This document shows positions 29,509 through 50,003 of a stretch of 64,000 nt of DNA, in pieces. The notes beneath the pieces were generated by a model. The model saw only the letters and a program-made list of their open reading frames with translations, was not told the origin of the DNA and did no database searches. The position numbers were made by a program, and so were the translations under genes. Origin of the DNA: a virus; UHGV virus genome UHGV-0139776. One strand, written 5' to 3'. Each line of letters begins with the position of its first letter. Position 1 is the first letter of the stretch.

Positions 29509-29578
29509 CTATTTCTTTAATCGAGGGTATTATATTCCACGTTGATTAGTTGACATGGGCTAATCAGTAGGTGACAGG

Positions 29579-30031
29579 ATGTTACTTAACTGGCAGGGAC
29601 GCCACTTCATGGAAATAAATCACTCACGAATAACATCGTATGAGATTGCGGATTACATGATCCGCACTAAATCTCTTCTATCAGCGAAAGAACTCGCAGC
29701 AATCCTTGAAAAGGAATACCCGCATCTGGATGTCGATAAGCGCGACGTTTATCTGCGCTTAAAGGCTATCGCTGTGTCTAAGTATTCGTCTGTTTTGATT
29801 GATGACAGTACACGCCCACGTAGATTTCAGATCCACTCTCTGAACCCTGAATTCTTTCGCCGCAGCCGCGCACCGCGCCGGTTTGATGAAAAACTCCAGA
29901 ACGAACTCTATATGACGCAGGACGAAAAGGAACGCCGGGAGCACCAGCCTTGGGTAATGGCGCGTCAACTTTTCAATAAGGTGGCCCGTCAGCACCGTAA
30001 TTACGGTAATGCCACATCCGCACGTATCTGA
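29579..30031 (+). CDS. lpa: late promoter activator-like protein
   Basis: 150-aa basic protein at the P1 lpa position (operator upstream, pacA downstream). Confidence 0.6.
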   Translation: MLLNWQGRHFMEINHSRITSYEIADYMIRTKSLLSAKELAAILEKEYPHLDVDKRDVYLRLKAIAVSKYSSVLIDDSTRPRRFQIHSLNPEFFRRSRAPRRFDEKLQNELYMTQDEKERREHQPWVMARQLFNKVARQHRNYGNATSARI

Positions 30032-30116
30032 TTGATTGCTTGCCCGTTCCGGGCCTTTTGACATGTGACTTTCGTTACCCTCGCGTCAAAAAGAGTTTTT
30101 ACGAAAGGAAGCATAA

Positions 30117-31310
30117 GTGACCTGGGACGATCACAAGAAGAATTTTGCTCGCCTGGCGCGAGATGGTGGTTACACCATCGCACAGTATGCCGCCGAGTTT
30201 AATCTTAACCCTAATACCGCACGTCGTTATCTCCGTGCCTTCAAAGAAGACACCAGGACAGCGGACAGCCGCAAGCCAAATAAGCCAGTCAGGAAGCCAC
30301 TAAAAAGCATGATCATTGATCACTCTAATGATCAACATTCAGGTGATCACATTGCGGCGGAAATAGCGGAAAAACAAAGAGTTAATGCCGTTGTCAGTGC
30401 CGCAGTAGAGAATGCGAAGCGCCAAAATAAGCGCATAAATGATCGTTCAGATGATCATGACGTGATCACCCGCGCCCACCGGACCTTACGTGATCGCCTG
30501 GAACGCGACACCCTGGATGATGATGGTGAACGCTTTGAATTCGAAGCTGGCGATTACCTGATAGATAACGTTGAAGCGCGGAAGGCCGCGCGCGCTATGT
30601 TGCGTCGGTCCGGGGCCGATGTTCTGGAAACCACTCTTCTTGAAAAGTCTCTTTCTCATCTCCTTATGCTGGAGAACGCCAGGGATACGTGTATTCGCTT
30701 GGTGCAGGAAATGCGCGATCAGCAAAAAGCCGATGATGAAGGTACTCCGCCTGAATACCGTATCGCGAGCATGCTAAACAGCTGTTCCGCGCAGATAAGC
30801 AGCCTGATCAACACCATTTACAGCATCCGGAATAACTATCGAAAAGAAAGCCGGGAGGCGGAAAAGCACGCTTTATCTATGGGGCAAGCTGGCATTGTTA
30901 AGCTGGCATACGAACGAAAGCGTGAAAATAACTGGTCAGTGCTGGAAGCGGCTGAATTCATCGAGGCGCATGGAGGGAAAGTGCCGCCCCTGATGCTGGA
31001 ACAAATCAAAGCCGATCTGCGTGCTCCTAAGACAAATACCGATGATGAGGAAAGGCAAACTGCCGTCGGTGGCCCTTCTCTTGAAGATCTGGACAAAGTT
31101 GCGCGAGAACGGGCCGCCAACCGCCGCGCCGATGCTGCATTGTGGATTGAGCAACGTAGGGAAGAAATCGCCGATATCGTTGATACAGGCGGTTATGGAG
31201 ATGTTGATACTGAAGGTGTATCAAACGAACCATGGCTGGAACAAGACCTGGACGAAGACGAGGAGGAAGACGAAGAAGTTACCCGCAAGCTATACGGGGA
31301 TGATGATTAA
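30117..31310 (+). CDS. pacA: terminase small subunit PacA
   Basis: 397 aa, contains the pac site in its 5' part, acidic C-terminus. Confidence 0.85.
30310..30468. other. pac packaging site
   Basis: four TGATCA hexamers (30310-30349) and three TGATCR hexamers (30440-30468) as in P1 pac. Confidence 0.85.
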
Positions 31311-32794
31311 TGGCCAGAAGTTGCGTAACGGATCCACGTTGGCGCGAGCTGGTGGCGCTATATCGTTATGACTGGATTGCGGCCGCTGATGTTTTGTTCG
31401 GCAAAACACCTACCTGGCAGCAGGATCTGATTATTGAGTCTGTGCAGGAACAGGGTAGCAAGACATCTGTTTCGTCTGGTCACGGTACCGGGAAATCAGA
31501 CATGACTTCTATCATGATCATGTTGTTCATAATCATGTATCCCGGTGCCCGTGCCATTATCGTTGCGAACAAAATTCAGCAGGTAATGACCGGTATATTC
31601 AAGTACATCAAGATAAACTGGGCTACGGCCACCAGCCGTTTTCCATGGCTTGCTGATTATTTTGTTCTGACAGAAACCGCTTTTTATGAAGTTACTGGTA
31701 AAGGTGTATGGACTGTAGTACCGAAGGGCTTTCGTCTGGGAAGTGAAGAAGCTCTCGCAGGTGAACACGCAGATCATCTTCTGTATATTATCGATGAAGC
31801 CTCCGGTGTCAGTGATAGAGCTTTCGGTATCATCACCGGTGCTCTTACCGGACAGGATAACCGCATCTTATTGCTGTCACAGCCTACACGCCCAAGCGGC
31901 TATTTCTACGATACTCACCATAAACTGGCCAAGCGTCCTGGTAACCCTGATGGCGTTTATACGGCGATCACGCTTAACAGTGAGGAATCACCGCTGGTAA
32001 CGCCAGCATTTATCAAAATGAAGCTGGCGGAGTACGGCGGGCGTGATAACCCTATGTACATGATTAAGGTACGCGGCCTATTCCCTAAATCACAGGATGG
32101 CTTCCTTCTTGGACGTGATGAGGTTGAACGTGCAACGCGGCGGAAAGTCAAGATTGCCAAAGGATGGGGCTGGCTTGCATGTGTGGACGTTGCTGGTGGT
32201 ACGGGACGGGATAAGTCCGTTATCAATATCATGATGGTGTCCGGCCAGCGAAATAAACGCCGTGTAATCAACTATCGAATGCTGGAATACACAGACGTTA
32301 CAGAAACGCAGCTTGCCGCCAAAATTTTCGCAGAATGTAATCCTGAGCGATTCCCAAATATCACCATAGCGATAGACGGCGATGGCCTGGGTAAAGCAAC
32401 GGCGGATCTGATGTACGAGTATTATGGTATTACCGTACAGCGTATACGCTGGGGTAAAAAGATGCATAGCCGTGAAGATAAGAGCCTGTACTTTGATAAA
32501 CGTGCTTATGCCAACGTTCAAGCCGCAGAGGCCGTAAAATCTGGTCGTATGAGACTGGATAAGGGTAATGAAACTATTGAGGAAGCGTCGAAAATCCCTG
32601 TAGGGATTAACTCCGCAGGTCAATGGAAAGTGATGAGTAAGGAGGATATGAAGAAAAAACTCAACCTGCACTCACCAGACCATTGGGATACATATTGTTT
32701 CGCTATGCTGGCTGATTATGTTCCCCAGGATGAAGTGCTTAGCGTCGAAGACGAAGCGCAGGTTGATGAAGCTCTGGCATGGCTTAATGAATAA
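31310..32794 (+). CDS. pacB: terminase large subunit PacB
   Basis: 494 aa; Walker A-like SGHGTGKS, Walker [11 protein letters not shown]. Confidence 0.85.
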
Positions 32795-32818
32795 CTCATT
32801 GACCATGCCGGATAGAAA

Positions 32819-33670
32819 CTATTGCGCGCTTTCGGGGTTGTCGTTTACTGGCTGCCCCTTCTTAGTTTTACGGCTGCGCGTAACTGATGCGGCTGATTTG
32901 ACCTTTTTCTCTTCGCGAGTGATGGCAATTTGTTTTTTTACATTTTCAATATCTGCCAGGCGATATATTTTTGCCTGCGGCCAGCGGTCGCAGATGATCG
33001 GTTCTATAGAGTCATAAAGGCTAAATTTTGCTTTCTCGAATTCACCGTTGATGATGATTCCATCACGGAGAGTTTCATCGCAGATAAACACACCACATAG
33101 CGGCACATGGTAACTAACTGATTTACCATCATTGTAGTTAGGGCTACTGGAAATGTAATGGACGCGCAGCATTGTTTCGCTAAAGCCGTGTACGCGCATA
33201 CGGAATTTTTCATCCTCCGGGTACTGCTTCATTAGCTCTTTTGTTGCTTCCAGGTTCTCTATGTATTTCGCACTGTGCTCATTGATCCCCGCGCTTTTTT
33301 GGATGCGAATGTCCTTATCAATCAGATGAATAATGCGGCCAGCGGTCATATTGACGCTGTTCACTGCTTCTGTCTGATAAGTTGTAACCTTACGTACACC
33401 GCGAAGGATGTTAGGCACAGGATATAAAATAGTCTTTGGGATATTGAGGTCTGGGTACTGTTCCAGTTCCCGCGCCATTAAAGTCCATTTATCAATTTCA
33501 GCCTGAATGCTGTCCGTTTCTTTGAACGGTAGAACGACAACCGGGCGTACAGGACGACCGTCGCTGGCGGCATCAACGTGTTGGGCGCGTGCAACAGCTT
33601 TTTTTAGAAAGAGATCCCTGAAGCTGACGAACTCCTGGTACAGTTGTTCGCCGTAGACATAATTTATCAT
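32819..33670 (-). CDS. c1: C1 repressor of lysis
   Basis: 283-aa ORF of the expected size and position; cognate operators throughout the window. Confidence 0.85.
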   Translation of the reverse strand: MINYVYGEQLYQEFVSFRDLFLKKAVARAQHVDAASDGRPVRPVVVLPFKETDSIQAEIDKWTLMARELEQYPDLNIPKTILYPVPNILRGVRKVTTYQTEAVNSVNMTAGRIIHLIDKDIRIQKSAGINEHSAKYIENLEATKELMKQYPEDEKFRMRVHGFSETMLRVHYISSSPNYNDGKSVSYHVPLCGVFICDETLRDGIIINGEFEKAKFSLYDSIEPIICDRWPQAKIYRLADIENVKKQIAITREEKKVKSAASVTRSRKTKKGQPVNDNPESAQ

Positions 33671-33764
33671 TGATCCTCCTCCAGAATTGACATGGCCAAC
33701 AACTCACAGCGGATTACACTGGGAGTTGTTGGCCACCATTATAGAAGGATCCAACGAAAATAAT

Positions 33765-33781
33765 AGATTTATTAGTGCATT
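33765..33781 (-). promoter_or_regulatory. C1 operator-like site (2 mismatches)
   Basis: reverse complement AATGCACTAATAAATCT between coi and c1. Confidence 0.45.
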
Positions 33782-33990
33782 TATTGTGAGTCTGGCTGGT
33801 TAGTGGCCATGAGATATTCGATTGTGTCAGTGAGATCATCCAGGTCGTCTTGGGTGATGCGGTACTCCTGATTGGATATCTTTGAGTAGTGTTCAGCAAT
33901 GGCGCGGGCAGCGTCGGTTTCGGCGGGGTCTACAGATAAAGCGTTAGAGCAATGTCTAACGTCGTCGATGGTTGGTGGAATGAAAGCCAT
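33781..33990 (-). CDS. coi: C1 inactivator Coi
   Basis: 69-aa ORF immediately upstream of c1. Confidence 0.75.
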   Translation of the reverse strand: MAFIPPTIDDVRHCSNALSVDPAETDAARAIAEHYSKISNQEYRITQDDLDDLTDTIEYLMATNQPDSQ

Positions 33991-34228
33991 AATTATGCCT
34001 CACTGTATTGACAACACAGAGCCTGAAGCTCTGACCTACTGTTTCACCCATGATCCATGCTGGGGTAATCTAACAACATTGCGCTGTGTGTAAGATGAGC
34101 AATGCATAGCTGTAATGCCGTTGTATAAGGTTTCCCTGTTTGCTCATTTCCTTCTGAGCCGCTCTACAACGCTGAAGACACATTAAATAGTGAATCCAAA
34201 GTCGTATTACGAAACGGCGGCAAAACTA

Positions 34229-34245
34229 TAATTTATTAGAGCAAT
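34229..34245 (-). promoter_or_regulatory. C1 operator-like site
   Basis: reverse complement ATTGCTCTAATAAATTA. Confidence 0.65.
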
Positions 34246-34311
34246 TGTCAAACAACTATGAAAAACAATCCAGTTTTTGGCTGGTGGAGTGGGATTTTTC
34301 TCTCAAAATTT

Positions 34312-34328
34312 ATTGCTCTAATAATTCT
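34312..34328 (+). promoter_or_regulatory. C1 operator-like site
   Basis: ATTGCTCTAATAATTCT. Confidence 0.65.
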
Positions 34329-34371
34329 TGATTTTTATGCGCAGCTGGACGTAAACTCCTCTTCGGACCTA

Positions 34372-34405
34372 ATAACTTCGTATAGCATACATTATACGAA
34401 GTTAT
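34372..34405. other. loxP site
   Basis: exact ATAACTTCGTATA-GCATACAT-TATACGAAGTTAT. Confidence 0.98.
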
Positions 34406-34823
34406 CTTAAGGGTTATTGAACATGATCAATTTACCTGTAAATCCATACAGTTCAATACCTTATCAGGTCAAATAGTGATCACTTGATCATTTGATCAAG
34501 GTTGCGCTACGTAAAATCTGCGAAATGTTGGCAGTGTTAGTGCTCCAGATTTCGCGTAGCGCACTTAGCACCACCAATCAATCAGAGGTGAAAAATGGGA
34601 TATTCAGCTGCTAAAGTGTCCACTCATCTTGAGCTTGAGAAAAACCGTGGTTACTGGCGGGCAAAAGGGTTTGATCGTGATAGTTGCCAACTGTCATTAT
34701 CGCGCGGTGAAGAGAAAATAGAACGCACGCGCGGTCGCTGGCGTTTCTATGACGAGAACCATAAACAGGTAAAGGCAGAGCCAATCCTGTACACTTTACT
34801 TAAAACTATTATCTGAGTGTTAA

Positions 34824-35855
34824 ATGTCCAATTTACTGACCGTACACCAAAATTTGCCTGCATTACCGGTCGATGCAACGAGTGATGAGGTTCGCAAGAA
34901 CCTGATGGACATGTTCAGGGATCGCCAGGCGTTTTCTGAGCATACCTGGAAAATGCTTCTGTCCGTTTGCCGGTCGTGGGCGGCATGGTGCAAGTTGAAT
35001 AACCGGAAGTGGTTTCCCGCAGAACCTGAAGATGTTCGCGATTATCTTCTATATCTTCAGGCGCGCGGTCTGGCAGTAAAAACTATCCAGCAACATTTGG
35101 GCCAGCTAAACATGCTTCATCGTCGGTCCGGGCTGCCACGACCAAGTGACAGCAATGCTGTTTCACTGGTCATGCGGCGGATTCGAAAAGAAAACGTTGA
35201 TGCCGGTGAACGTGCAAAACAGGCATTGGCGTTCGAACGCACTGATTTCGACCAGGTTCGTTCACTCATGGAAAATAGCGATCGCTGCCAGGATATACGG
35301 AATCTGGCATTTCTGGGGATTGCTTATAACACCCTGTTACGTATAGCCGAAATTGCCAGGATCAGGGTTAAAGATATCTCACGTACTGACGGTGGGAGAA
35401 TGTTAATCCATATTGGCAGAACGAAAACACTGGTTAGCACCGCAGGTGTAGAGAAGGCACTTAGCCTGGGGGTAACTAAACTGGTCGAGCGATGGATTTC
35501 TGTCTCTGGTGTGGCTGATGATCCGAATAACTACCTGTTTTGCCGTGTCAGAAAAAATGGTGTTGCCGCGCCATCTGCCACCAGCCAGCTATCAACTCGC
35601 GCTCTGGAAGGGATTTTTGAAGCAACTCATCGATTGATTTACGGCGCTAAGGATGACTCTGGGCAGAGATACCTGGCCTGGTCTGGACACAGTGCCCGTG
35701 TCGGAGCCGCGCGAGATATGGCCCGCGCCGGAGTTTCAATACCGGAGATCATGCAAGCTGGTGGCTGGACCAATGTAAATATTGTCATGAACTACATTCG
35801 TAACCTGGATAGTGAAACGGGGGCAATGGTGCGCCTGCTGGAAGATGGCGATTAG
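34824..35855 (+). CDS. cre: Cre tyrosine recombinase
   Basis: 343 aa, MSNLLTVHQNLPALPVDATSDEVRKNLMDMF... Confidence 0.97.
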   Translation: MSNLLTVHQNLPALPVDATSDEVRKNLMDMFRDRQAFSEHTWKMLLSVCRSWAAWCKLNNRKWFPAEPEDVRDYLLYLQARGLAVKTIQQHLGQLNMLHRRSGLPRPSDSNAVSLVMRRIRKENVDAGERAKQALAFERTDFDQVRSLMENSDRCQDIRNLAFLGIAYNTLLRIAEIARIRVKDISRTDGGRMLIHIGRTKTLVSTAGVEKALSLGVTKLVERWISVSGVADDPNNYLFCRVRKNGVAAPSATSQLSTRALEGIFEATHRLIYGAKDDSGQRYLAWSGHSARVGAARDMARAGVSIPEIMQAGGWTNVNIVMNYIRNLDSETGAMVRLLEDGD

Positions 35856-35872
35856 CCGTTTATTTGCAACTG

Positions 35873-35889
35873 ATTGCTCTAATTATTTG
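35873..35889 (+). promoter_or_regulatory. C1 operator-like site
   Basis: ATTGCTCTAATTATTTG 18 bp after cre stop. Confidence 0.6.
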
Positions 35890-35905
35890 ATATTTATGGT
35901 GACAC

Positions 35906-36217
35906 ATGCGGAAGGATTTCAAAATAGACGGAAAATATGTGGTGCTGTCTGTAAGCTCTCAAATTCAGTCACCATCTGTCATTGTCACCGTAAAGTTGAG
36001 CGATAGGATGCCTGATATCGACTCGATATCTGTTGCGTTCCCCGTTAAAAGCATGCGGAGTGCTGAACATTTTGTGATGAATGCAACGGAGGAGGAAGCG
36101 CGGCGCGGGCTTACTAGAGTGATGGTGGAATTTGGCGAACTCCTGGGTAAGGTAAACAATGCCCTTTCAATCAGTTCAGCAAGATCCAAAGCGTTAACAG
36201 CTTCCATGATGAAATAA
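35906..36217 (+). CDS. hypothetical protein at the P1 cra position
   Basis: 103-aa ORF between cre and ref. Confidence 0.5.
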   Translation: MRKDFKIDGKYVVLSVSSQIQSPSVIVTVKLSDRMPDIDSISVAFPVKSMRSAEHFVMNATEEEARRGLTRVMVEFGELLGKVNNALSISSARSKALTASMMK

Positions 36218-36221
36218 AAAA

Positions 36222-36242
36222 AGCCTGGCAAGGAGCCAGGCT
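36222..36242. terminator. hairpin, terminator-like for leftward transcription
   Basis: AGCCTGGC-AAGGA-GCCAGGCT preceded by an A7 run (T7 on the minus strand). Confidence 0.45.
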
Positions 36243-36348
36243 GCACAAAAGAGCGGGTTTGTATTCCGCATCCAATCAATCAAGAAGGAGTATAGCACAC
36301 AGGTACTGAAGTGAAAAAATGTGATTCGCGATTAACAAAATACCTACC

Positions 36349-36378
36349 ATTGCTCTAATTGATTGCTATAATTAAGCC
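36349..36378 (+). promoter_or_regulatory. tandem overlapping C1 operator-like sites
   Basis: ATTGCTCTAATTGATTG and ATTGCTATAATTAAGCC upstream of ref. Confidence 0.6.
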
Positions 36379-36463
36379 GCAGTTTTTGTCAACTACGAAG
36401 ACGTTGCCATTACTTCACTCCTTGACATCATTGGCGGCCATTAGGCCGCCTTTTTTTTGCCAT

Positions 36464-37024
36464 ATGAAAACAATCGAACAAAAACTTGAACAGCGCCGCG
36501 AGTGGCAGAAGGCAGCCAGAGAACGAGCGATCGCTCGGCAACGGGAAAAGTTGGCTGACCCCGCCTGGCGAGAATCGCAATATCAGAAAATGCGGGATTC
36601 TATCGACCGCCGTATCGCTAAACAGAAAGAGCGCCCACCAGCCAGCAAAACGCGGAAAAGTGCGGTAAAAATAAAATCTCGTGGCTTGAAGGGGCGAACA
36701 CCGACGGAGGAGGAACAGACTATCGCCAATGCTCTTGGCACTCTCCCCTGCATTGCCTGCTACATGCATGGAGTAATATCTGAAGAGGTGTCTCTGCACC
36801 ATATCTCCGGTCGTACCGCGCCGGGTTGTCACAAAAAGCAATTGCCCCTTTGCAGATGGCACCACCAGCATGCAGCACCGGCTGAAGTAAGAGAAAAATA
36901 CCCCTGGCTGGTCCCTGTTCATGCCGATGGCGTGGTAGGAGGCAAGAAAGAATTCACCTTGTTGAACAAGTCAGAGATGGAGTTGCTGGCTGACGCCTAT
37001 GAAATGGCAAACATCATGCACTAA
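36464..37024 (+). CDS. ref: Ref (HNH-type recombination enhancement nuclease)
   Basis: 186 aa; basic N-terminus, HNH-like LHHISG...CRWHH core. Confidence 0.8.
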   Translation: MKTIEQKLEQRREWQKAARERAIARQREKLADPAWRESQYQKMRDSIDRRIAKQKERPPASKTRKSAVKIKSRGLKGRTPTEEEQTIANALGTLPCIACYMHGVISEEVSLHHISGRTAPGCHKKQLPLCRWHHQHAAPAEVREKYPWLVPVHADGVVGGKKEFTLLNKSEMELLADAYEMANIMH

Positions 37025-37212
37025 TAAATATATTATTTTTAATCTTAAATGATTGACAACTGACAAGTGACTTGAGTCAGAATCATCACACGCCCGGTAC
37101 GGATGGATCCCTTTTCAAATATTCCATGGACGGCACAGTCTGAGTACCGGGCGCTACCTTCAGTTGTATTGCTAAGCCGCCGCTGGTGGCTTTTCTTTTT
37201 TGTAGGGGCGCT

Positions 37213-37854
37213 ATGGATAAGAAAATATGCGTTGTTTCGATGAGCGTCGGCAAACCGGCGTCAATGACTGCTGCATGGATCAACAACGAGCTGATAATGG
37301 CTGAGCGGACCAGCTACCCTGAACGCCGCCGCGACATGGAACTCCAGCTGCTGCGCGAATTGCGAGAAAAAGAGGAAAAGGGTTTTATCGTGCTGGTGGA
37401 AGAGGAAAACAGCTTTATTACTGGTCGAGTTGGCCAGCGTGTAAGGTTGCGCGATCCCTTCATGAACGGCAGGCCGGTACTGATTGAAGCAATGCAGATT
37501 TACAAGGAGCTGGAACGCCAGAAAGCGATCAAGTTACCGCGCAAGGAATCCGGCAAATACATCCTCCACCAAAGCATCTTCGATTCCGAACACGATAAAA
37601 AAGGCGATGAATTTTTCAACATCAACTGGAGCGAAATAACGACAGAGCATGTTCTGACGTTACTATGTTGCTTTGCGACGGAATACAACAACGTTGCCAG
37701 CGCCGACTACATCAGGGCAATGGCTGGAGAAGTTGAAGCCCGCCAGGAACCATCGTTACTAAGTCCACTTATTAACATAATTCTGGGTACCCAGACACTG
37801 GAACAAAAAAAAGTGCCGAAAGGGGTATTAACAGGCAAGCATAATTATTTCTAA
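37213..37854 (+). CDS. mat: particle maturation protein-like
   Basis: 213-aa ORF from ATG 37213 at the P1 mat position. Confidence 0.6.
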   Translation: MDKKICVVSMSVGKPASMTAAWINNELIMAERTSYPERRRDMELQLLRELREKEEKGFIVLVEEENSFITGRVGQRVRLRDPFMNGRPVLIEAMQIYKELERQKAIKLPRKESGKYILHQSIFDSEHDKKGDEFFNINWSEITTEHVLTLLCCFATEYNNVASADYIRAMAGEVEARQEPSLLSPLINIILGTQTLEQKKVPKGVLTGKHNYF

Positions 37855-38052
37855 TAATTTATAGTGGGGACTTTTGATGGTGTAAAACCCCATGAATTAT
37901 TATTTTTTAGTTTTTTGATTCTATTTTTTTTGCATTACCCGTCATAAAAATGAGCTTGCTTACATAATAGAAAATTATTTTATCAACACTATTACAACAA
38001 ACGATTATCACTGATAACATGAGTCCTTTGAAAACAAAGGACTCACCATACT

Positions 38053-38661
38053 ATGTCTAATACCTCGGCAAATGAAATTGTACCGCACTTACCGCTAATT
38101 TTCGAAAATGAAGCTAATGGGATTCTTCAGGATCTGGCCTATACTCCATCGCTTATGGGGTTGATGATGTTCCCGACAGAAGAGGAGCTGAAAGCAGCGA
38201 GAAGCTACATAATTAACGTTTTTGAAGAGTGTTACCGAGCCGGTCATTTGCGCATTATGGGCTTTACTAATGAAGAAAACTTGTTCGGATACGCCTTAAT
38301 CTTCGGACATCCATCGGGAAATTTTCCGTTGTACTGTCATAAAATATATGTATATGAGCAATATCGTGGTAATGGACTTGGAAGTAATATACTGGCAGAA
38401 ATACTTGCATTTCCAAATGAGGTCGCTTTGATTTGCCAGTCTGATTTGGTTCCTTTTTATGAATCAGCCGGAATGCACTTTAAAGGAAATTACACCACTC
38501 CATCAGTCGCCAATTTCAAAAAAACTCGCGGCATGTATGAGGGGCTTTGTTTGATGAGCACTGAAAAAAATGCAAACTCTAATGGTGTACCTATATTCAT
38601 GCTGAACGATAACGATATTGATAACATCATACAGGCTATCGCATCATCGGCACCACGATAA
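38053..38661 (+). CDS. GNAT-family N-acetyltransferase
   Basis: YVYEQYRGNGLGSNIL acetyl-CoA-binding motif; AT-rich gene with 195-bp AT-rich leader. Confidence 0.7.
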   Translation: MSNTSANEIVPHLPLIFENEANGILQDLAYTPSLMGLMMFPTEEELKAARSYIINVFEECYRAGHLRIMGFTNEENLFGYALIFGHPSGNFPLYCHKIYVYEQYRGNGLGSNILAEILAFPNEVALICQSDLVPFYESAGMHFKGNYTTPSVANFKKTRGMYEGLCLMSTEKNANSNGVPIFMLNDNDIDNIIQAIASSAPR

Positions 38662-38743
38662 TATTAATAATTCATCTCGCCGCAGGAACTACAAACCAGT
38701 TGATTGTTTGTGAAACGCCCGGTGCAAACCGGGCCAACAAAAC

Positions 38744-38992
38744 TCAATCAGCATTGAGAAGCAATGCATTATCTATGATGATCTGCTCCCATTCTTCGAA
38801 TGCCCGGTCGCGGACGCCCTGGGGAACACTGTTTGTTTTGAAATCGACGACTGTACGCCATTTCCCGTCCGGACGGTACATGCGCAGAGCTTTACTTCCC
38901 CCTTCCCTGCGCACCTCAACGTTATGCTTGTCAGCAAACTCTTGTAATGCTCGTAGCGTCCCATGCTTTACTGTGTAGTATCGCTTTTTCAA
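38744..38992 (-). CDS. hypothetical protein (P1 lxc position)
   Basis: 82-aa ORF, last gene of the darB operon. Confidence 0.5.
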   Translation of the reverse strand: MKKRYYTVKHGTLRALQEFADKHNVEVRREGGSKALRMYRPDGKWRTVVDFKTNSVPQGVRDRAFEEWEQIIIDNALLLNAD

Positions 38993-39429
38993 GTTTTCTC
39001 TCCAGCCTGTGCCAAGGCTTCAACTTCCAAATCGTAAGACTCAAACTCATAGTCCTGGTCGTCAACTTCTTCAGGCACTGGCAGTAAATGCCAGGCTGAG
39101 TATATCTGACCATTATCAAAACGCTCCTGGCTGTAGAGCGTCGCGGCTATGAGTGTTAGCGCCGGGCGGTCATAACGGTAAATTTTGCGAACGTCACGGT
39201 CAACGAGACGACCGAAATTACCATAACCGCGCTCCAGTAATAATTTTTTAATTTCCGGCCAGTATGGACCATAGCTGCGGTACAGGCGGGGATTTTTCAG
39301 TAATCGCCCGCGTAGCCCTGACAGGAAGAAATCAACGTATTCGTCTTCTGTCTTTCCTAACAACGCTGTACGGAGTACCGCCTCAAGATATGTTTTATTC
39401 GGTTTTATTGTATCAGATAGTGTGGCCAT
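38989..39429 (-). CDS. hypothetical protein (P1 ulx position)
   Basis: 146-aa ORF coupled to neighbours. Confidence 0.5.
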   Translation of the reverse strand: MATLSDTIKPNKTYLEAVLRTALLGKTEDEYVDFFLSGLRGRLLKNPRLYRSYGPYWPEIKKLLLERGYGNFGRLVDRDVRKIYRYDRPALTLIAATLYSQERFDNGQIYSAWHLLPVPEEVDDQDYEFESYDLEVEALAQAGEKT

Positions 39430-39462
39430 ATTATGCGACGCCCGGCGAACCGGGCGCTCCTG

Positions 39463-42400
39463 TTATGCGTATTGTTGGATGACGGCCAGAACGTCCGCCA
39501 CGTTGTGTTTTGTCTCGATAATCCACCAGTTACCTGGGAAGTCGCTGTTCTTCGCCTTCGCTGGCAACCAGCGAGCGCCGAATTTCGCCTTGATTGCGTC
39601 TTTCGCACGGAAAAGAACCCCTTTCATGCCGGAGGCTTCCTGAAGCCCAAATACCTCGCCAGCGGCGAATTTTGGTGCGTACATCATCTTCAGGTCGGCG
39701 GTGGATACGCGATAATTCAGACCAAGAGACTGAGCTATGCTGGTGGCATCACCCTGTATTGATGATAACTCTTCTTGTTTCTCGTTTCTGGCAGCAATTT
39801 CTTCCTCCGTGATGTTGCCAAGGGCCAGGTTTATCCGATCAGCGTCTGCCTGTTTCTCTTCATCGGTGCGCCCGGCAAGTACCATGTTAATTCTGTGCAA
39901 TATCTCCACATGATTCTTGCGCATGCTGAGCAATTCCGGCGTAACCTCGTTAAGGTCCACCAGCCCAAGGATGGCAAGGTCGGTAAACATTGATACCAGG
40001 TTGTAGGTCATGCGATAGCTGAGTTGCCCATAGGCTGATGGCAACTGCACCGCATCCATTTTATAGGCATCCATAAATTTAGAGCCGTCGTTTACGACAT
40101 CCGCAATTGCCGGTGTGATTTTTCCTGTGGTGGCGGCCTCCCTGATTGCTGTTACCCACGATTGAGTCAGCGCGGCGACTGCATGATTCAGATTGACTTT
40201 CCGTTCTGCTGCAATGCGCGCGCTTGCTGCGTCCATTGCCTGCTTGATCTCGTCTTTATTGCTGTAAATGCCAATGGTGCCAAACTGTGCTGTGGTGATC
40301 TCATAATCTGACGCCCGGAACTCATTGGTACCGAAAATGGCATTGGTGACTTCAAGTTCAGAATCCCCGTTACGAGTAGCCCCCTGGCTTGTTTTCTCCG
40401 GCATTCTGGCGATCGCATCCGCTATTTTCTCCTGAATTGCTTCAGGGGATAGCGTATCTCCGTATGACGCGATTACATCGCCATAATTGGAGCCAAACAG
40501 TTCAACCAGGAATGCTTCTGCCGAACGGATCTGGCGGTTATTCCCTTCCGACATCATACCAAGCACCCATTTTGCAATTGACGACTTCAGCGCGCCGTCA
40601 CGGCGATCCGGGTAAACCGCATGCTTCAGTGGGTCCGTATAGGTACCAACAAAATCAATGCTATAGCCTGACTCTGTAGTCTGAACGCCGTATGAGTCAG
40701 TGATTTTGATCATGCCGCGCTGCTGGAAACGGTAGAAATCGTCACAGGAAACGATGTCGTTAATCCCGGCGATGGAGACGCCACCACTGATTTTCTGCAT
40801 AACAGCATCTTCATCGGGAGTTACATCAACCTGTTTATCCAGCGTCTTCACATCCCAGTTACCAGATTTGGTGCCTTTGAAGGTGAAGATGATCTCCACG
40901 TCTGCGCGCTGGCTGTCGAAGTCCAGCGACTTAATGCGAACGATATCACCGGCACAATCGTAGTATTGGCCTACACGCCATGAGCGATCGCCGATAACAA
41001 GGAACTCACTCGCATGGTTAACCAGGTCAGGATCAACATCCAGAATGCCTTTATTTAATGCATCCTCCACCAGCGGGCGCAGGCGTTTGATATCCGTCGC
41101 GGCCTTCTGAGTACGGTTCAATAATTTCTCATAGCGGGAGATGGCTTGAGAGATATTAGCCTTGCGCTGAATGGCGCTTTTCAACGACGCGCGATACTGT
41201 GCTAACAACATACGGTCTGTGTGATGGACACTCCCCCAGCGTGCCTTCCAGTCTGCGTTATCCGCTGCCTTGGCCATTGCCGCCTGTTTGAATTTAGCTA
41301 CCTCGGCGGTGGTCTTTTCAAGTTCCGCTTTGCTTCGCTCTAATTCAGCGGTAAGCACCTCCACATCCTCACCAGCTGCGTGCTGCGCCTTGATGTAGTT
41401 CTGAAGGTCGATAGTAGCCTGTTCTTTCTGGCGAGCGCGTTGCGCGGCTTTCGCCTTATCCATTTGAACCTGCATCATTGCCAGACGTTCGCCATCATCC
41501 TTAGCGGTATACATCTGCATTTCGATCATATCGTTGGCGTCGGCGTTCTCCATTTCTGACTTATCTGAACGGAGGATATCGGAGATCCAGCCTGCTTTAC
41601 GCTTCAGCGTCTTCAGTCGGTATTCATCGAAAGAACCCTTGCCGCAGTAGTAGTGAACGCGAACGCTTGCACGGTTGGAGCCAACTCGGGCACCGCGACC
41701 GTTTCGTTGCGCAATACTGGCTGGAGTCCATGGCAACGTCAGATGATGGATGTCAGTCGTTCCTCGATGCAGGTTGATACCCACCTCTGCCTTTTTGTTG
41801 CAGATGATGATCGGAGTCCGGCCCTCCTGGAAGTCGGCTGCAATCTTTTCCAGACCGCCCAACGACATTTCATTTTGCTGCGCGATATAGGCGTCATACA
41901 GAGCCATTTGCTCGTTGTATTTCGCTATCTGTGCATCTGTTGGTTCATCCGGTAACTCTTTCGGCGGTTTAACCGCTTTCAGTTTCTTACCGGTTTTACC
42001 TGCCTCGGCAACCGTCTGAGCATTCAGTATCCCCACCTTTGAAGGTTCAAGGTTAAGAGCATTGCAGATAATGCGCTTGAGCTTCTGGTGCTGCGTTTTT
42101 TCATCGGTGAAGATGATTTGCTTACCTTCCGGGAAAAACTCCTTCAGCGTGGCAATCAGCTTCGCGTATTTGGGCGTAACGGGGTGAGTTACGGTCTGTT
42201 CGTCAATGCCAAACCTGGCCAGGCGCTTATTCACTTCCTGCTCGAACGCTTCCGGAACCTGCAACTGAATAAACTCGCCCTTATCTATCAGGGAGTATTG
42301 CGATTGCTGCGTGATTAAATCATCACTGTCGTCGTCTTCGCTGGTGGCTTGTTTAGGCAAACTGTCCGCCAGCTGCTGCACCGCATCGGCGTACTCCGGC

Positions 42401-45400
42401 AGGAAACGATAGGTGATCCGGCGATAGTACAGGTCCATGTCAGTACATACGCGGTCCATATCCCTGATTATTGAGAAGATCGGACGGGCTTTCTCGTGCT
42501 CAATCACGCCGTCTTCATTGACCGAGGTCGTTACGCCATTGTTGGCTTTGGCCGCCGCTTCCGCCTGCTGACGCAATTCTTCATACGCCGCCAGTTGTTC
42601 TTCAGTAAGTGGTGCATCCTGCTGGTGTTCGTCCAGCTCCGGGATCTCCACGGTATCCTTAACGTCTTCCGCCGTTTTAAGCGTTACCCAGCGATGGAAT
42701 ATACCGCGCAGCGCATCAAGGTTTTCAAAGCCCACCAGCGCCATTTTTTCTTCAACTTCACCGCTGATTTTCTGTACCGTTTCCAGCCTGGTCTTGCCGA
42801 AGAATTTAACGAAGTCATCAGGACCGTAGATCCCCATCTTCTGCCAGTATTCCTTCGGCAGAACATGAGAAAGCATGTTGTATGCATCGATCGGGGTGTT
42901 AACGACTGGCGTTGCAGTCAGGAGAACCGGCCCGCGCCCGCCATTCTTTTTCATCAGGTACGCGTTTTTGATTGCCATATCCCGCGCCGATTGCGCCACC
43001 GCGCTGGTGGGCAGATAGGCCAGTTGTGACGCTTCGCGACCATTTTTATAGCTATTGCGGTAGTTGTGGCCTTCGTCGGCGATCACACTATCGAAGCCCA
43101 TATCCTCAAAGTACGGATATTTCTCTGCTTTTTCGGTACCGGTATCTGAATACTCCGACAATACCCGGCGACGCGCCGCCTCTTTACGATGGGAGTCGGA
43201 ATCCATTGCGCTGGCTACGCGCCCGGCGGCAACGAAGTCATAAAGCATGTCTTGTGCATGCTCATCTACGGTGTCATCACGTAGCGGAATGCGGGCGTAT
43301 TGTTCTTTGGTAAACACGACTGCACGGTAGTTTGAGTGCGGGATCGCGTTCATCCGCGCCGTGATAGTGGCTTCATCTGCCAGCTTAAGAGCATCGCGCA
43401 TAACTGGAGTGCCATCAGTACCAAGAACAGGTTTACCGTTCTCATTGAGCACCGGCACCTGGCGAATCTGATCGCCATCCATCAGCACATCAAGACCGAC
43501 GAACAAGTAGTTACTGAATGCCTCTTCACTCAGGAATTCTTTTGCTTCGTAATACCAATTTTCCAGCACTGATTTAGGCACTACATACGCAGTACGGGTA
43601 GAGCGACCGTTCTCATAGTTGAACGCCTCAAGCGCCAGCGCGGTCGTGGTTTTACCCAGCCCGGTGCCGAAGCCCAGGATGCCGCGCCCATCTTCGGACA
43701 GTCGGCGCACCTCGCTATTCTGGTAATCAAATGGCTGGCGCTTACCGCTTAATCCCTTCAACCCAAGCGGATCGCCAGAGTGTTCATACGGGATATTGCT
43801 ATTGAACACATCGTTGTATTTGGCAACCAGCTCATCGTAGCGATCGTGCGTCTTGATCCACTTATTGAACTGGTCCTCAAGCAGTGCCATCTGCTCGCGG
43901 TAGCCGTTCGCCGTCGCGCTATCTTTGCCACCGATACGCGCACCATTGAGATACTTTTCCAGCTGTGCCGGGAACCCGGTCGCGTTTTCACCCGATTTAC
44001 GGTCCCACTCGTAGCGGATCTCGCCTGTTTCTTTATCCTTGCGCTGGACGACACCGTATCGGTGCCCGACGAACAGACCATCACCACCGTGATAGGTGTC
44101 AGAAACCATTTCGTCGCCTTCCAGCTGCACTGACTGCACATAGCGCAGATCCGGATAGCCGTTTTCCTGCAAAAATTCCAGAATGACGGAGCGGTCGAAC
44201 CAACGGCTATTGAGCTTAAAGCGGATATTCTCTGCTGGCGTCTTGATGCGCTTCTCTTCGATCGCTGCCAGCTGATTAAGGACGTTGTTCTTTACTGGAC
44301 CGTCGGGGAGTGTGGCAAGAAATTCCTGTTTTGGAGCCACTATCTCGTTAATGTCGCCGCTGGTGGCGCGGGCGAACGGAACAATCCCGCCATACGGTGA
44401 AACCGCAATACCAGGGGTGCTGGCCAATAAATTAAGCAACTCTTCATCACTGGCTGGCAGTTCGCCGGTAAACGCAAGGCGGAAATCATCGAGCTGGATT
44501 GGATCGCGGGTAAGATCGCTATAGAGATAACGCAGGGTGTCCTGATAGCTGGTGGAGTCATAACTGGCGCTGGAATCATGCGTAACCAGCTTTCCTGTCA
44601 GCTCGTCAGAAATAGTGCCATCCAGCTTAATCGCACCACGGAAAGCAAACCAGGCGCGCGCACCGCTCCCCGACAATTTCGCTATCGGACCGCGACCGGG
44701 GTTACCAAAACGGTCAATCTCTGCCTGCAAACGGGATACCAGAGAAAGGCGCTGCTGTTCGATTTGTTCAGCACTATGCCCGGCGGCCTTCATGTCCTGA
44801 TATTCAATTAACATCCGGCCAATCATCGCCCCGCGATACAAGCGTTCACGGTATTTTTCAGGCTGGCTGTTAATCCAGTCCACCAGCTGCACCATATCGT
44901 CGCTGATTGATGTGGTGTACTTATCGCGGACATTTGCCATCTGGGTAAATGTCATGCCGAGACGGCCTTCTGTTGTAGTCAGGTTACGCTGAAGAGCCTC
45001 CCAGCTATCCGCGCCATAACTGGCAGCATCGATCTTAAGTTCCTTCCCGGCATCAGCTTCAATCCAGCGACCACCAGCATATTTTTGCCATACGCCACTA
45101 ATCAGGCGCATTTCCCCTTCACCAACAACGTCTGCGGTCGGTGACGGTTCAGCCATATCGAGCAAAGACCAGTCGATACGGCTTTCGAAACGATGAATCA
45201 GCTTCGCTTTAAGAGCCTGGTTATCAATCTGACCGTCGGCACGAACCTCAATACGCCCCTGGAAGCCCTTTTCCTGGGTGCCATGAACAAACCGGCGGCC
45301 GTCCTTTTCAAACCACTTGCCAGAAATAAACGTTGGCCAAAGCACATTTGCCGATTCGAGAGTGCTTTCATCCACCAGGGGGATTTTCTCAGCCATCTCT

Positions 45401-46230
45401 GCCGGATGTTTGCGCATCAGCACCACATCAACGACTGTACTGGTCCCGTTTGCGTCAAAAGTACCGGTAGGCAAGCGGTGAGCGCCAAGAAATTCAGCTT
45501 TCCGTGATAGGCGCAGGCGTAACCGCTTCATGTTTGAACCTGAAACAATGGACGGCGGCACAATCACACACATGAATCCGCCAGGCTTTATCTTGTCCAG
45601 CATGCGGAGCATGAAGTAAGAACCCATGTCCGTTTCTTCTGCGTAAGGCTTATCGATGTTGCGTGTGTTATCACGACCGCCGAACGGAACGTTACCCACA
45701 ACATGGTCGAATGAATCGTTAGGCGTGTTTATAGCCAGCTGTTCGAACGGGGAAATCTGTACGCTGTCTTCCGGGTGTAACAACTGGTTTATACGACCGG
45801 AAACACTGCTGATCTCAGTCGCGGTCATCACCGTACCAACCGGTTTTGTCTCATTAAAAACGCCGGTTCCCGCCGATGGTTCCAGAGTGTTACCTACGTC
45901 CGCGCCGTAGAGCTTCATGATCTCCCAGACACCTTCAGCGATAGGCTTTGGTGTGTAATATTCGGAGACGGACCCGCCAATGCCGCCTTCACCAGTGTAC
46001 CCGGCCAGGATCTGGCGCTGTTCATCTGTCAGTGTCGCGCCGTCCACCAGCGAATTAAGCAAATCTATCGCCTTCTGATTCGCCTCCCGGCGCAGTCGGT
46101 CATAGCTTTTGCCTTCCACCTTTTCCACGCCGTATTTAATCGGCGCTCGGTGAGATGTTATTGCCCTAATGTATTTCAATATTTCGCTGACACTTGAACA
46201 GCGAAACACACCCATAGATAGCTTGTTCAT
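39463..46230 (-). CDS. darB: DarB antirestriction protein (methyltransferase-helicase fusion)
   Basis: 2255 aa; N-terminal MTase motif NVPFGG, SF2 helicase motifs GTGLGKTT and DEGHNY. Confidence 0.9.
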   Translation of the reverse strand: MNKLSMGVFRCSSVSEILKYIRAITSHRAPIKYGVEKVEGKSYDRLRREANQKAIDLLNSLVDGATLTDEQRQILAGYTGEGGIGGSVSEYYTPKPIAEGVWEIMKLYGADVGNTLEPSAGTGVFNETKPVGTVMTATEISSVSGRINQLLHPEDSVQISPFEQLAINTPNDSFDHVVGNVPFGGRDNTRNIDKPYAEETDMGSYFMLRMLDKIKPGGFMCVIVPPSIVSGSNMKRLRLRLSRKAEFLGAHRLPTGTFDANGTSTVVDVVLMRKHPAEMAEKIPLVDESTLESANVLWPTFISGKWFEKDGRRFVHGTQEKGFQGRIEVRADGQIDNQALKAKLIHRFESRIDWSLLDMAEPSPTADVVGEGEMRLISGVWQKYAGGRWIEADAGKELKIDAASYGADSWEALQRNLTTTEGRLGMTFTQMANVRDKYTTSISDDMVQLVDWINSQPEKYRERLYRGAMIGRMLIEYQDMKAAGHSAEQIEQQRLSLVSRLQAEIDRFGNPGRGPIAKLSGSGARAWFAFRGAIKLDGTISDELTGKLVTHDSSASYDSTSYQDTLRYLYSDLTRDPIQLDDFRLAFTGELPASDEELLNLLASTPGIAVSPYGGIVPFARATSGDINEIVAPKQEFLATLPDGPVKNNVLNQLAAIEEKRIKTPAENIRFKLNSRWFDRSVILEFLQENGYPDLRYVQSVQLEGDEMVSDTYHGGDGLFVGHRYGVVQRKDKETGEIRYEWDRKSGENATGFPAQLEKYLNGARIGGKDSATANGYREQMALLEDQFNKWIKTHDRYDELVAKYNDVFNSNIPYEHSGDPLGLKGLSGKRQPFDYQNSEVRRLSEDGRGILGFGTGLGKTTTALALEAFNYENGRSTRTAYVVPKSVLENWYYEAKEFLSEEAFSNYLFVGLDVLMDGDQIRQVPVLNENGKPVLGTDGTPVMRDALKLADEATITARMNAIPHSNYRAVVFTKEQYARIPLRDDTVDEHAQDMLYDFVAAGRVASAMDSDSHRKEAARRRVLSEYSDTGTEKAEKYPYFEDMGFDSVIADEGHNYRNSYKNGREASQLAYLPTSAVAQSARDMAIKNAYLMKKNGGRGPVLLTATPVVNTPIDAYNMLSHVLPKEYWQKMGIYGPDDFVKFFGKTRLETVQKISGEVEEKMALVGFENLDALRGIFHRWVTLKTAEDVKDTVEIPELDEHQQDAPLTEEQLAAYEELRQQAEAAAKANNGVTTSVNEDGVIEHEKARPIFSIIRDMDRVCTDMDLYYRRITYRFLPEYADAVQQLADSLPKQATSEDDDSDDLITQQSQYSLIDKGEFIQLQVPEAFEQEVNKRLARFGIDEQTVTHPVTPKYAKLIATLKEFFPEGKQIIFTDEKTQHQKLKRIICNALNLEPSKVGILNAQTVAEAGKTGKKLKAVKPPKELPDEPTDAQIAKYNEQMALYDAYIAQQNEMSLGGLEKIAADFQEGRTPIIICNKKAEVGINLHRGTTDIHHLTLPWTPASIAQRNGRGARVGSNRASVRVHYYCGKGSFDEYRLKTLKRKAGWISDILRSDKSEMENADANDMIEMQMYTAKDDGERLAMMQVQMDKAKAAQRARQKEQATIDLQNYIKAQHAAGEDVEVLTAELERSKAELEKTTAEVAKFKQAAMAKAADNADWKARWGSVHHTDRMLLAQYRASLKSAIQRKANISQAISRYEKLLNRTQKAATDIKRLRPLVEDALNKGILDVDPDLVNHASEFLVIGDRSWRVGQYYDCAGDIVRIKSLDFDSQRADVEIIFTFKGTKSGNWDVKTLDKQVDVTPDEDAVMQKISGGVSIAGINDIVSCDDFYRFQQRGMIKITDSYGVQTTESGYSIDFVGTYTDPLKHAVYPDRRDGALKSSIAKWVLGMMSEGNNRQIRSAEAFLVELFGSNYGDVIASYGDTLSPEAIQEKIADAIARMPEKTSQGATRNGDSELEVTNAIFGTNEFRASDYEITTAQFGTIGIYSNKDEIKQAMDAASARIAAERKVNLNHAVAALTQSWVTAIREAATTGKITPAIADVVNDGSKFMDAYKMDAVQLPSAYGQLSYRMTYNLVSMFTDLAILGLVDLNEVTPELLSMRKNHVEILHRINMVLAGRTDEEKQADADRINLALGNITEEEIAARNEKQEELSSIQGDATSIAQSLGLNYRVSTADLKMMYAPKFAAGEVFGLQEASGMKGVLFRAKDAIKAKFGARWLPAKAKNSDFPGNWWIIETKHNVADVLAVIQQYA

Positions 46231-46296
46231 TGGTAATCCTTAACAAGTGACTAGTGTTAAATTCCGTTCAAACACGATGCGAATTATTCTAATTAA

Positions 46297-49027
<2,731 letters not shown>

Positions 49028-49071
49028 CCACCAAAAATAACCCCGGCAGCTGCCGGGGTTCTCGTTAACTA

Positions 49072-49326
49072 TTATCGCCTTCGTGCCATATATTTGCGCA
49101 CCGCGCGGCGTGGACAATCTGAAGCGGTTTCTTTCTGCTGCATCAATCTCGCAGCCATGCTCAAAAATGTCAGGCACAGCCGAAGCCCGGCATACAATAG
49201 CGGTTCCAGTGGCCACGTCTCATTGAGCACATATACCGCCATGAAAATCGAGTCAAAAACTATCGCCGCCAGCGATAACTTCATTGTCGAAAGTCGGCGG
49301 AGCTGCCGGAGTTTATTCATTGACAA
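49072..49326 (-). CDS. hypothetical small protein downstream of lyz
   Basis: 84-aa ORF overlapping lyz stop; weak. Confidence 0.25.
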   Translation of the reverse strand: MSMNKLRQLRRLSTMKLSLAAIVFDSIFMAVYVLNETWPLEPLLYAGLRLCLTFLSMAARLMQQKETASDCPRRAVRKYMARRR

Positions 49327-49870
49327 GCCCCGTCAGGCAAAGCTGGCGTTCTTTTTCACGGCGAATCTTTAAACCTCGCAGGGGCACGCCGTTACTGTTC
49401 ACGAAATCAGGGAGATGGTTACACATATTCACCCATTCCCCTTTCTGCGCCCACTTGTGGATGGACGTTTCTACTCGCATGCCTCGCGCTTTGCTGTAGT
49501 AGGTCCGTAAGCTATTGCATCCCATATTGAATGCCGCGCTTGTCATTGCACTGAAGGCATTATCGGGCATGTCTTTGCCCCGGAAGTGCTGATTAATACA
49601 GCGTTCAGCGATCAGGATATTCTTTTCCCAATCAGCGGCGATTTGCTGGTCGGTTTTTCGCACACCCGGCGTTACCCCGTGTGTATTACCGATCCCGTCA
49701 GTCCATACCCCCGCCGGGCACATGTATGGATCACGTCGGCAACCTTCAGCGTTACCAATCAGCTCAAGCCCCGCCTGGTTGGTTCGCACATTGCCATTAC
49801 CCATCACGATGGTAATCATCACCGCGATAGCGCAAATTGCACCGCCTCCTGCGGCTGTTTTTCCCTTCAT
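49313..49870 (-). CDS. lyz: SAR endolysin (T4-lysozyme fold)
   Basis: 185 aa from MKGK; N-terminal Gly/Ala-rich TM-like SAR domain AICAIAVMITIVMG then CRRDPYMCPAGVWTDGIGNTHG. Confidence 0.85.
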   Translation of the reverse strand: MKGKTAAGGGAICAIAVMITIVMGNGNVRTNQAGLELIGNAEGCRRDPYMCPAGVWTDGIGNTHGVTPGVRKTDQQIAADWEKNILIAERCINQHFRGKDMPDNAFSAMTSAAFNMGCNSLRTYYSKARGMRVETSIHKWAQKGEWVNMCNHLPDFVNSNGVPLRGLKIRREKERQLCLTGLVNE

Positions 49871-50003
49871 AAAGACCTCATAAGCGAATTTTTTACGCTC
49901 CAGGACAAACACTCATTCACAGCCAATACCGACTGACTCGATCCCTTTAGAAGGCACAGGATAATGCAAATCACTTGTTAGCCACGTTTCAAAGATATAC
50001 ATT

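Follow-up and report, generated by a model that had tools for sequence, protein, structure and literature searches.

The four copies of the 12-mer TRACAWGTGAYT (T(A/G)ACA(A/T)GTGA(C/T)T) that lie before pacA, mat, prt and lyz are almost certainly the activator-recognition elements of the Lpa-dependent late promoters LPpac, LPmat, LPpro and LPlyz of a P1-like phage-plasmid. The analysed window, which is the whole 64-kb stretch of DNA, was 97.5-98% identical to P1 and SJ46, and the analysis covered the sequences, positions and orientation of the sites, how closely they match the annotated P1 promoters, how far they are conserved in diverged relatives, and lpa itself, together with the modelled fold of its product. 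A preliminary description had proposed an Lpa-dependent promoter element, and this reading is supported because all four sites coincide with late promoters annotated in the P1 GenBank record AF234172, with 0 (LPpac), 1 (LPmat), 0 (LPpro) and 2 (LPlyz) mismatches over 45 nt, and because lpa is present. In that record, LPlyz is described as 'previously identified', while 'predicted' is used for LP23 only. The motif is real, but the finding is an ordinary one as it marks late promoters of P1 that are already known and annotated.

A pattern search of both strands of the window returned exactly four matches to the 12-mer, at the places that had been described (Table 1). The only error that was found concerned the copy before pacA, whose coordinates had been given as 30060-30071 and are one base off. 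The distance of 46 nt between this copy and the pacA GTG at 30117 was correct, as were the 75-bp gap between darB (ATG 46230, minus strand) and prt (TTG 46306) and the contexts of the copies before mat and lyz. In 100 dinucleotide-preserving shuffles of the window, the expected count was 0.02, none of the shuffles reached four matches and the observed number was therefore 200-fold over expectation. A similar frequency inside coding regions, which would have argued against a promoter element, was not observed; none of the four copies falls within an ORF of at least 150 aa, although such ORFs cover 74% of the window.

The layout of the late promoters, as defined by the annotation of AF234172 ('-22 region', spacer and -10), consists of a 9-bp '-22 box' resembling AAGTGACTT, a 4-bp spacer and a -10 hexamer, without a -35. 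The 12-mer is offset from this box: it starts four bases upstream, takes in box bases one to eight and misses the last one. It recovers only four of the seven P1-annotated late promoters in the window. The boxes at the four sites (ATGTGACTT, AAGTGACTT, AAGTGACTA and AAGTGATTT) had 0-1 mismatch to the published consensus, which was taken from the GenBank annotation and a secondary citation. All four -10 hexamers are located exactly 4 bp from the box and have the form TANNNT, except for CAGAAT at mat, which is also the annotated -10 of LPmat in P1. A position weight matrix (PWM) that was built from ten P1 late promoters gave seven matches of at least 20 bits in the window compared to the 0.012 expected, six of which were intergenic, 22-123 nt upstream of the start codons of late genes and in the same orientation. 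When the transcription starts were predicted from the -10 geometry, pacA, mat, prt and lyz lay 29-123 nt downstream of them; the start at LPpac is predicted at about 30088, i.e., 29 nt before the pacA GTG. LPpro, which drives prt-pro from within the darB/prt divergent region, was the top PWM match. We rejected the possibility that its box also serves darB, as the reverse reading, TAGTCACTT gtta AGGATT, has no usable -10 and would place the start inside darB. LPlyz drives lyz-lydD/E (lyz ATG at 49870). Because LPmat overlaps Pmat, an annotated weak sigma-70 promoter (-35 TTGACA at 37053-37058, 19-bp spacer), mat may not be purely Lpa-dependent.

Table 1. Motif copies, late promoters and the activator locus in the 64-kb window, with the P1 coordinates of their counterparts.
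Feature	Position	Strand	Sequence elements	Score (bits)	P1 position (AF234172)	Context
12-mer copy 1	30059-30070	+	TGACATGTGACT			before pacA
12-mer copy 2	37061-37072	+	TGACAAGTGACT			before mat
12-mer copy 3	46241-46252	+	TAACAAGTGACT			darB/prt divergent region
12-mer copy 4	49969-49980	-	TAACAAGTGATT			before lyz, on the lyz strand
LPpac	30061..30081	+	AC 30061-30062, box ATGTGACTT 30063-30071, spacer tcgt, -10 TACCCT 30076-30081	26.2	90475-90493	
LPmat	37063..37083	+	AC 37063-37064, box AAGTGACTT 37065-37073, spacer gagt, -10 CAGAAT 37078-37083	27.5	2678-2696	
LPpro	46243..46263	+	AC 46243-46244, box AAGTGACTA 46245-46253, spacer gtgt, -10 TAAATT 46258-46263	29.0	17251-17269	
LPlyz	49958..49978	-	AC 49978-49977, box AAGTGATTT 49976-49968, spacer gcat, -10 TATCCT 49963-49958	26.2	20969-20987	
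LP26	11051..11071	-	AC, box AAATGACTA 11069-11061, spacer gcgg, -10 TAGAAT 11056-11051	27.7		
LPpmgL counterpart	11061..11079	+	TAGTCATTT gttg ATTATT			LP26 box read on the other strand
LPdar	59609..59629	-	AG instead of AC, box AAGTTACTT 59627-59619, spacer tgca, -10 TACCAT 59614-59609	22.2		
Late-promoter-like candidate, unannotated	9346..9368	-	CAAC AAGTGACTG gtga TAACCT	21.2	76802-76780	inside gene 7
lpa (gene 10)	29579..30031	+				late promoter activator, 150 aa
C1 operator Olpa overlapping sigma-70 promoter Plpa	29492..29533	+			89904-89945	

The activator itself is encoded in the window. The product of lpa differs from P1 Lpa by one residue, belongs to phrog_1704 and matched Pfam PF25716 at E 6.5e-57; its AF2 model (pLDDT 87) has a winged-helix fold with a C-terminal helix, and a PDB sequence search with Lpa gave no match. 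As Olpa (1 mismatch in 42 nt to P1) overlaps Plpa, the expression of lpa is tied to the release from C1 repression. Once this repression is lifted, lpa would be transcribed from Plpa/Olpa, and Lpa, a small winged-helix protein, would bind the box, whose centre is about 22 bp before the start, and turn on the genes for packaging (pacAB), head (prt-pro), maturation (mat) and lysis (lyz). [quoted passage not shown] The results confirm that the classical cascade from C1 through Lpa to the late promoters is retained in this P1-like phage-plasmid, which has little significance beyond correct annotation, for which exact coordinates of seven late promoters and one extra candidate are now available.

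Besides the four sites, the window carries LP26/LPpmgL and LPdar. LP26, with 1 mismatch over 45 nt to its P1 counterpart, drives genes 26-25-7-24-6-5, and LPdar, with 0 mismatches over 45 nt, drives lydA-lydB-hdf-darA-ddrA-ddrB. LPpmgL is doubtful as a late promoter because it has no AC before its box, scores only 11 bits even in P1 and has lost A2 of its -10 in the window (AATATT in P1, ATTATT here); additionally, JK004 has no usable -10 on the LPpmgL strand. The candidate inside gene 7, 45 nt past the gene 7 ATG (9413), lies outside the PWM training set; 0.006 matches of this kind are expected per window, and its sequence is identical in P1. In three divergent relatives, its AC, TGAC and TAnnnT were kept in the same register, but the score was only 6-7 bits.

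These three relatives, whose proteins are 60-85% identical, were found by tblastn of phage and plasmid collections. A search of genome and viral contigs for loci with Lpa and gp7 returned almost only relatives that were at least 99% identical and hence useless for footprinting, apart from the contrast at LPpac between the core and the (GATT)n repeat and leader. The LPpac core was invariant in 78 close relatives and conserved in the three divergent ones. Around this core, the (GATT)n repeat and the leader vary among the close relatives. In the divergent relatives, PWM matches of at least 12 bits were located upstream of the orthologs of mat, R, 23, pacA, prt, 26, lyz, pmgC and lydA, or of ppfA, ssb, upfC and lpa, with a reverse-strand reading in SARZ (21734-21756) as the sole exception. 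Across nine ortholog sets, conservation peaked at positions -2 to +8 and at the T, A and T of the -10 and dropped in the flanks, whereas positions -4 and -3 were variable (invariant in four and three of the nine sets, respectively). In P1 and the three divergent relatives, the AC directly 5' of the annotated box showed the same degree of conservation as the box, from which we infer that it belongs to the recognised site. By conservation, the element would be the asymmetric 11-mer ACAAGTGACTT; a TRAC-N3-TGAC direct repeat is another way to read it. That the Lpa-responsive element is this asymmetric 11-mer (AC plus AAGTGACTT) rather than the symmetric 9-bp inverted repeat, and that the AC is required for activation and sets the direction of the promoter, is a tentative proposal to which we give clearly less than even chances. 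If it is true, LPpmgL, which is the LP26 box read in reverse, is no genuine late promoter, genes 24-6-5 are fed by a twelfth, unannotated one inside gene 7, and Lpa, as a single winged-helix domain, binds asymmetrically. A literature text search for AAGTGACTT, ACAAGTGACT and related strings returned unrelated primer sequences only.

The conservation of the AC could also be explained differently. The left part of the motif (TTGACA/TTAACA-like, ending at box position 0) might be a displaced -35 for sigma-70 region 4 with an abnormally short 12-bp spacing, in which case the upstream TRAC(A) would be a contact of RNA polymerase that is repositioned by SspA and Lpa, and not a contact of Lpa. LPpac does have TTGACA at 30057-30062 and LPpro has TTAACA, both 12 bp from the -10, the A and C at -2 and -1 are conserved as strongly as the box, and SspA is known to bind sigma-70 region 4 (PMC7515715). 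However, 12 bp is far from the needed 16-18 bp and no such promoter was called in our scan; moreover, positions -4 and -3 vary among the orthologs even though TTG matters most in a -35, and the late promoters of D6 have no such element, which together make this explanation unlikely. An ordinary sigma-70 promoter was rejected because a TTGACA-like hexamer is lacking 16-18 bp before the -10; in the sigma-70 scan, none of the four -10 hexamers was paired with a -35 at this distance. A hairpin or another RNA-level element was likewise rejected, since a stem of 4 bp around a 1-nt loop is unable to fold and the transcript starts only downstream of the box.

It is scarcely credible that the four copies reflect chance or merely inherited similarity without a function of their own. 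The bare 9-mer with up to one mismatch is indeed not specific, as it occurred 18 times in the window, mostly in coding sequence, compared to about 14 expected. Chance does not, however, account for the excess of the 12-mer, for four intergenic copies that are each oriented toward a late gene and placed exactly 4 bp from a -10, or for an element that is fixed in relatives while its flanks diverge. Equally implausible is a repressor operator (C1) or another immunity element in place of an activator site. The late-gene regions of P1 often carry C1 operators as well, and in the window 24 bp separate Ossb (50004-50020) from the LPlyz box, with O26 (11094-11110) near LP26. The 17-bp asymmetric operator consensus ATTGCTCTAATAAATTT is nevertheless unrelated to the motif in sequence, its 13 matches in the window all lie clear of the four motif copies, and operators and late promoters are annotated as separate features in the P1 record.

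With P1 (AF234172; 11 late promoters), the window shares the orthologous positions, the 9-bp -22 box, the 4-bp spacer, the -10, the downstream genes and lpa. The differences are one substitution in the LPmat spacer (C to G), two substitutions in the flanks of LPlyz, the altered -10 of LPpmgL and the absence of LPhot. A DNA-bound activator that works via an SspA-family protein on sigma-70 RNA polymerase is also found in Francisella, where PigR acts with MglA-SspA, and the papers on that system cite Lpa/SspA of P1 as a precedent (PMC1891329, PMC4382096). Unlike Lpa, PigR is an unrelated protein with an unrelated DNA element and serves chromosomal virulence regulation, not phage late transcription. 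The middle promoters of T4 are similar in that a phage activator box, the MotA box, takes the place of the -35 in front of an ordinary sigma-70 -10, with an accessory protein, AsiA, engaging sigma region 4; the proteins, the box sequence and its position (-30 compared to -22) are different, and AsiA is encoded by the phage, while SspA is a host protein. In D6 and D6-like plasmid prophages, the gene order follows the same logic, and prt, R, lysin, mat, gene 7, pmgB and ddrB are each preceded by a conserved box with a -10-like hexamer a few bp downstream of it. D6 has a homolog of Lpa, but it is only 31% identical, and its box is AATCACANNCT, unlike the ACAAGTGACTT of the window. The AC extension and this comparison are refinements of a system known from descriptions of 1989-2004 rather than grounds for calling it new, but they could help in promoter models for P1-like phage-plasmids or in the engineering of Lpa-controlled expression. 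While AATCACANNCT has no occurrence in the window, it is found seven times in D6 compared to 0.9 expected, each time before a late gene.

The degenerate 12-mer TRACAWGTGAYT was found exactly four times on both strands of the whole window, while 0.02 copies were expected by shuffling and four copies were reached in none of 100 shuffles. All four were located outside the ORFs of 150 aa or longer, which make up 74% of the window. The preliminary description had reported these copies before pacA, mat, prt and lyz and had proposed that they are a late-promoter element dependent on the activator Lpa. The pattern count and a direct reading of the sequence bore out the copies and their contexts, including the distance of 46 bp to pacA and the 75-bp divergent region between darB and prt, and only the first copy had to be moved, by one base to the left. 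The proposed interpretation was also supported, with the sites mapping exactly onto the LPpac, LPmat, LPpro and LPlyz of P1. This four-site feature is a textbook regulatory element that has already been annotated; only the AC extension of its box, the candidate in gene 7 and the contrast with phage D6 are mildly new.

The P1 record AF234172 lists 11 late promoters (LPmat, LPpro, LPlyz, LPdar, LPs, LPsit, LP23, LP26, LPpmgL, LPhot and LPpac); in ten of them the annotation shows a 9-bp "-22 region" (the box), a 4-bp spacer and a -10 hexamer, unlike LPhot, in which the spacer is 9 bp. The 9-bp repeat was described as the Lpa-binding site of the 11 late promoters (PMC10695390), and the boxes annotated in P1 are AAGTGACTT (mat), AAGTGACTA (pro), AAGTGATTT (lyz) and ATGTGACTT (pac). 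The 12-mer comprises the four bases 5' of the box and bases 1-8 of its nine, and it missed LP26/LPpmgL and LPdar, both of which are present in the window. When the P1 promoters were mapped onto the window as 45-nt segments, no match was obtained for LPs, LPsit or LP23, and LPhot was absent because the sequence 5' of hot had been replaced. The upfM-upfO region is absent as well (window 25531-26036), and hot (25800-26036) is preceded by a different small ORF (25531-25797). The LPpmgL counterpart (11061-11079, +) lacks the conserved AC, scored 11 bits in P1 and has lost the key A of its -10 hexamer (ATTATT vs AATATT in P1); it probably does not function as a late promoter. Upstream of LPpac, a (GATT)2 repeat at 30030-30037 begins within the lpa stop codon; among near-identical relatives (IMG/VR contigs) there are one, two or five GATT copies, and the LPpac core just 3' of the repeat is invariant.

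Positions of lpa, the 12-mer, the late promoters and the related sites (window coordinates, except for phage D6)
Feature	Position	Strand	Evidence
lpa	29579-30031		Pfam PF25716, E 6.5e-57; PHROG 1704 "Lpa-like transcriptional activator"
12-mer copies	30059-30070; 37061-37072; 46241-46252; 49969-49980	+; +; +; -	direct reading
LPpac	30053-30097	+	0 mismatches to P1 over 45 nt
LPmat	37055-37099	+	1 mismatch to P1 over 45 nt
LPpro	46235-46279	+	0 mismatches to P1 over 45 nt
LPlyz	49986-49942	-	2 mismatches to P1 over 45 nt
LP26 and its reverse reading, LPpmgL	11061-11069 (shared box)	opposite strands	45-nt mapping from P1
LPdar	59627-59609	-	45-nt mapping from P1
Unannotated late-promoter-like site	9368-9346	-	CAAC AAGTGACTG gtga TAACCT; 21.2 bits, 0.006 expected per window
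D6 box, examples (D6 locus L010)	19216-19226; 25230-25240; 38124-38134

A position weight matrix that was based on ten P1 late promoters (positions -4 to +18, with box positions numbered from 0) gave seven matches of 21-29 bits in the window, the next best reaching at most 13 bits; according to the exact score distribution, 0.012 matches of at least 20 bits are expected per window. Six of the seven are annotated promoters, which are intergenic and face a late gene whose start codon is 22-123 nt downstream. The bare 9-mer with up to one mismatch was not enriched in the window (18 occurrences vs about 14 expected); the specificity lies in the wider context. No -35 was found 16-18 bp from any of the four -10 hexamers. 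That the motif could be an operator of the repressor C1 was rejected, as the C1 operators are separate elements, none of which overlaps it. A C1-operator-like 17-mer with three mismatches, ATTGCCCTAATGTATTT, is located within the 5' end of darB (46160-46176, +); it has no annotation in P1 and may be due to chance.

In the alignment of the ten P1 promoters, A at -2 and C at -1 each occurred in nine, and their information, 1.5 bits each, equalled that of box positions 0 and 1. In order to avoid circularity, three divergent genomes with a protein identity of 60-85% to P1 (Cronobacter phage JK004, a Salmonella arizonae plasmid, CP053320, and a Salmonella Newport plasmid, CP140745) were scanned with a matrix that was blind to the upstream bases, and AC was directly 5' of the box in all 15 matches of at least 15 bits. 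With the full matrix, all but one of the matches that reached 12 bits or more in the three genomes were upstream of late-gene orthologs (mat, R, 23, pacA, prt, 26, lyz, pmgC and lydA) or of ppfA, ssb, upfC or lpa, the sole exception being a reverse-strand reading at SARZ 21734-21756. A column-by-column comparison of nine ortholog sets revealed that -2, -1, +5, +6 and the T, A and T of the -10 were invariant in all nine, other box positions in five to eight and the flanks in none to five. Because invariance peaks at the AC and the box, the constrained element, as judged from these alignments, is an asymmetric 11-mer, AC+AAGTGACTT; +9 and +10 are not conserved, and so the palindrome ends at the box without extension. 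Of the upstream bases that had been included in the 12-mer, the AC was therefore upheld, while the leading T and the purine proved to be weak preferences only (-4 is T or C and -3 a purine, each in nine of the ten P1 promoters).

The seventh strong match lies 45 nt inside gene 7 (ORF 8685-9413, minus strand) and is identical in P1 (76802-76780), where it is unannotated. In the three divergent relatives, AC, TGAC and TAnnnT are kept in the same register despite amino-acid replacements, with scores of only 6-7 bits. The site is an unproven candidate for an internal late promoter of genes 24-6-5. Other late-promoter-like sites without annotation in P1 are conserved in relatives outside the window (P1 63962-63984, -; loci L175 1742-1764 and L009 36281-36303). 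The site before ppfA scored 12.6 bits in P1 and 18.8 in the Salmonella Newport plasmid, and the one before ssb scored 14.2 bits in JK004 and both Salmonella plasmids.

The Lpa of the window differs from that of P1 in one residue, and upstream of its gene lie the C1 operator Olpa and the promoter Plpa, which differ from P1 at one of 42 nt. The family is tiny (of 1.8 billion cluster representatives, 35 matched with an E of at most 1e-3), and a PDB sequence search with Lpa gave no matching entry. According to the literature, SspA, the host protein that acts with Lpa, does not bind late-promoter DNA; in our interpretation, a box centred at -22 would set Lpa beside the surface described in the SspA literature. 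In phage D6, whose Lpa is only 31% identical, the late genes have their own box, AATCACANNCT, rather than that of P1. There were seven copies in D6 vs 0.9 expected, all before late genes (lysin, prt, ddrB, R, pmgB, gene 7 and mat), and none in the window. This co-variation supports the view that the box determines the specificity of the activator. One isolated P1-type box in D6, TGACAAGTGACTTTCATTAATCT (22.8 bits; locus L011 25092-25114), lies in the interval from gene 26 to mat and may have been left behind by recombination.

Megablast of window 29000-51000 matched P1-like phage-plasmids, with Salmonella phage SJ46 showing 98.1% identity (96% of the query covered) and P1 97.5% across the shared 71%. 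In the mat leader (37084-37213), a terminator-like hairpin (37174-37192, AAGCCGCCGCTGGTGGCTT) followed by the T-run TTCTTTTTTG lies downstream of LPmat and upstream of the likely start of mat. The latter is probably ATG 37213, giving a product of 213 aa, which is also its length in JK004 and the Salmonella plasmids, whereas the longer ORF annotated in P1 begins at ATG 2716, the equivalent of window 37103. In the window, this longer frame is interrupted where a G-run differs by 1 nt (GGGG vs GGGGG in P1), which, together with the hairpin before ATG 37213, suggests that either the leader is regulated or the P1 mat annotation is over-extended. Between mat and ulx/darB, the window has about 1.1 kb (37855-38988; ORFs 38053-38661 and 38700-38978) in place of the 6.5-kb res-mod-lxc block of P1 (EcoP1 type III restriction-modification), a system that is apparently missing from this element.
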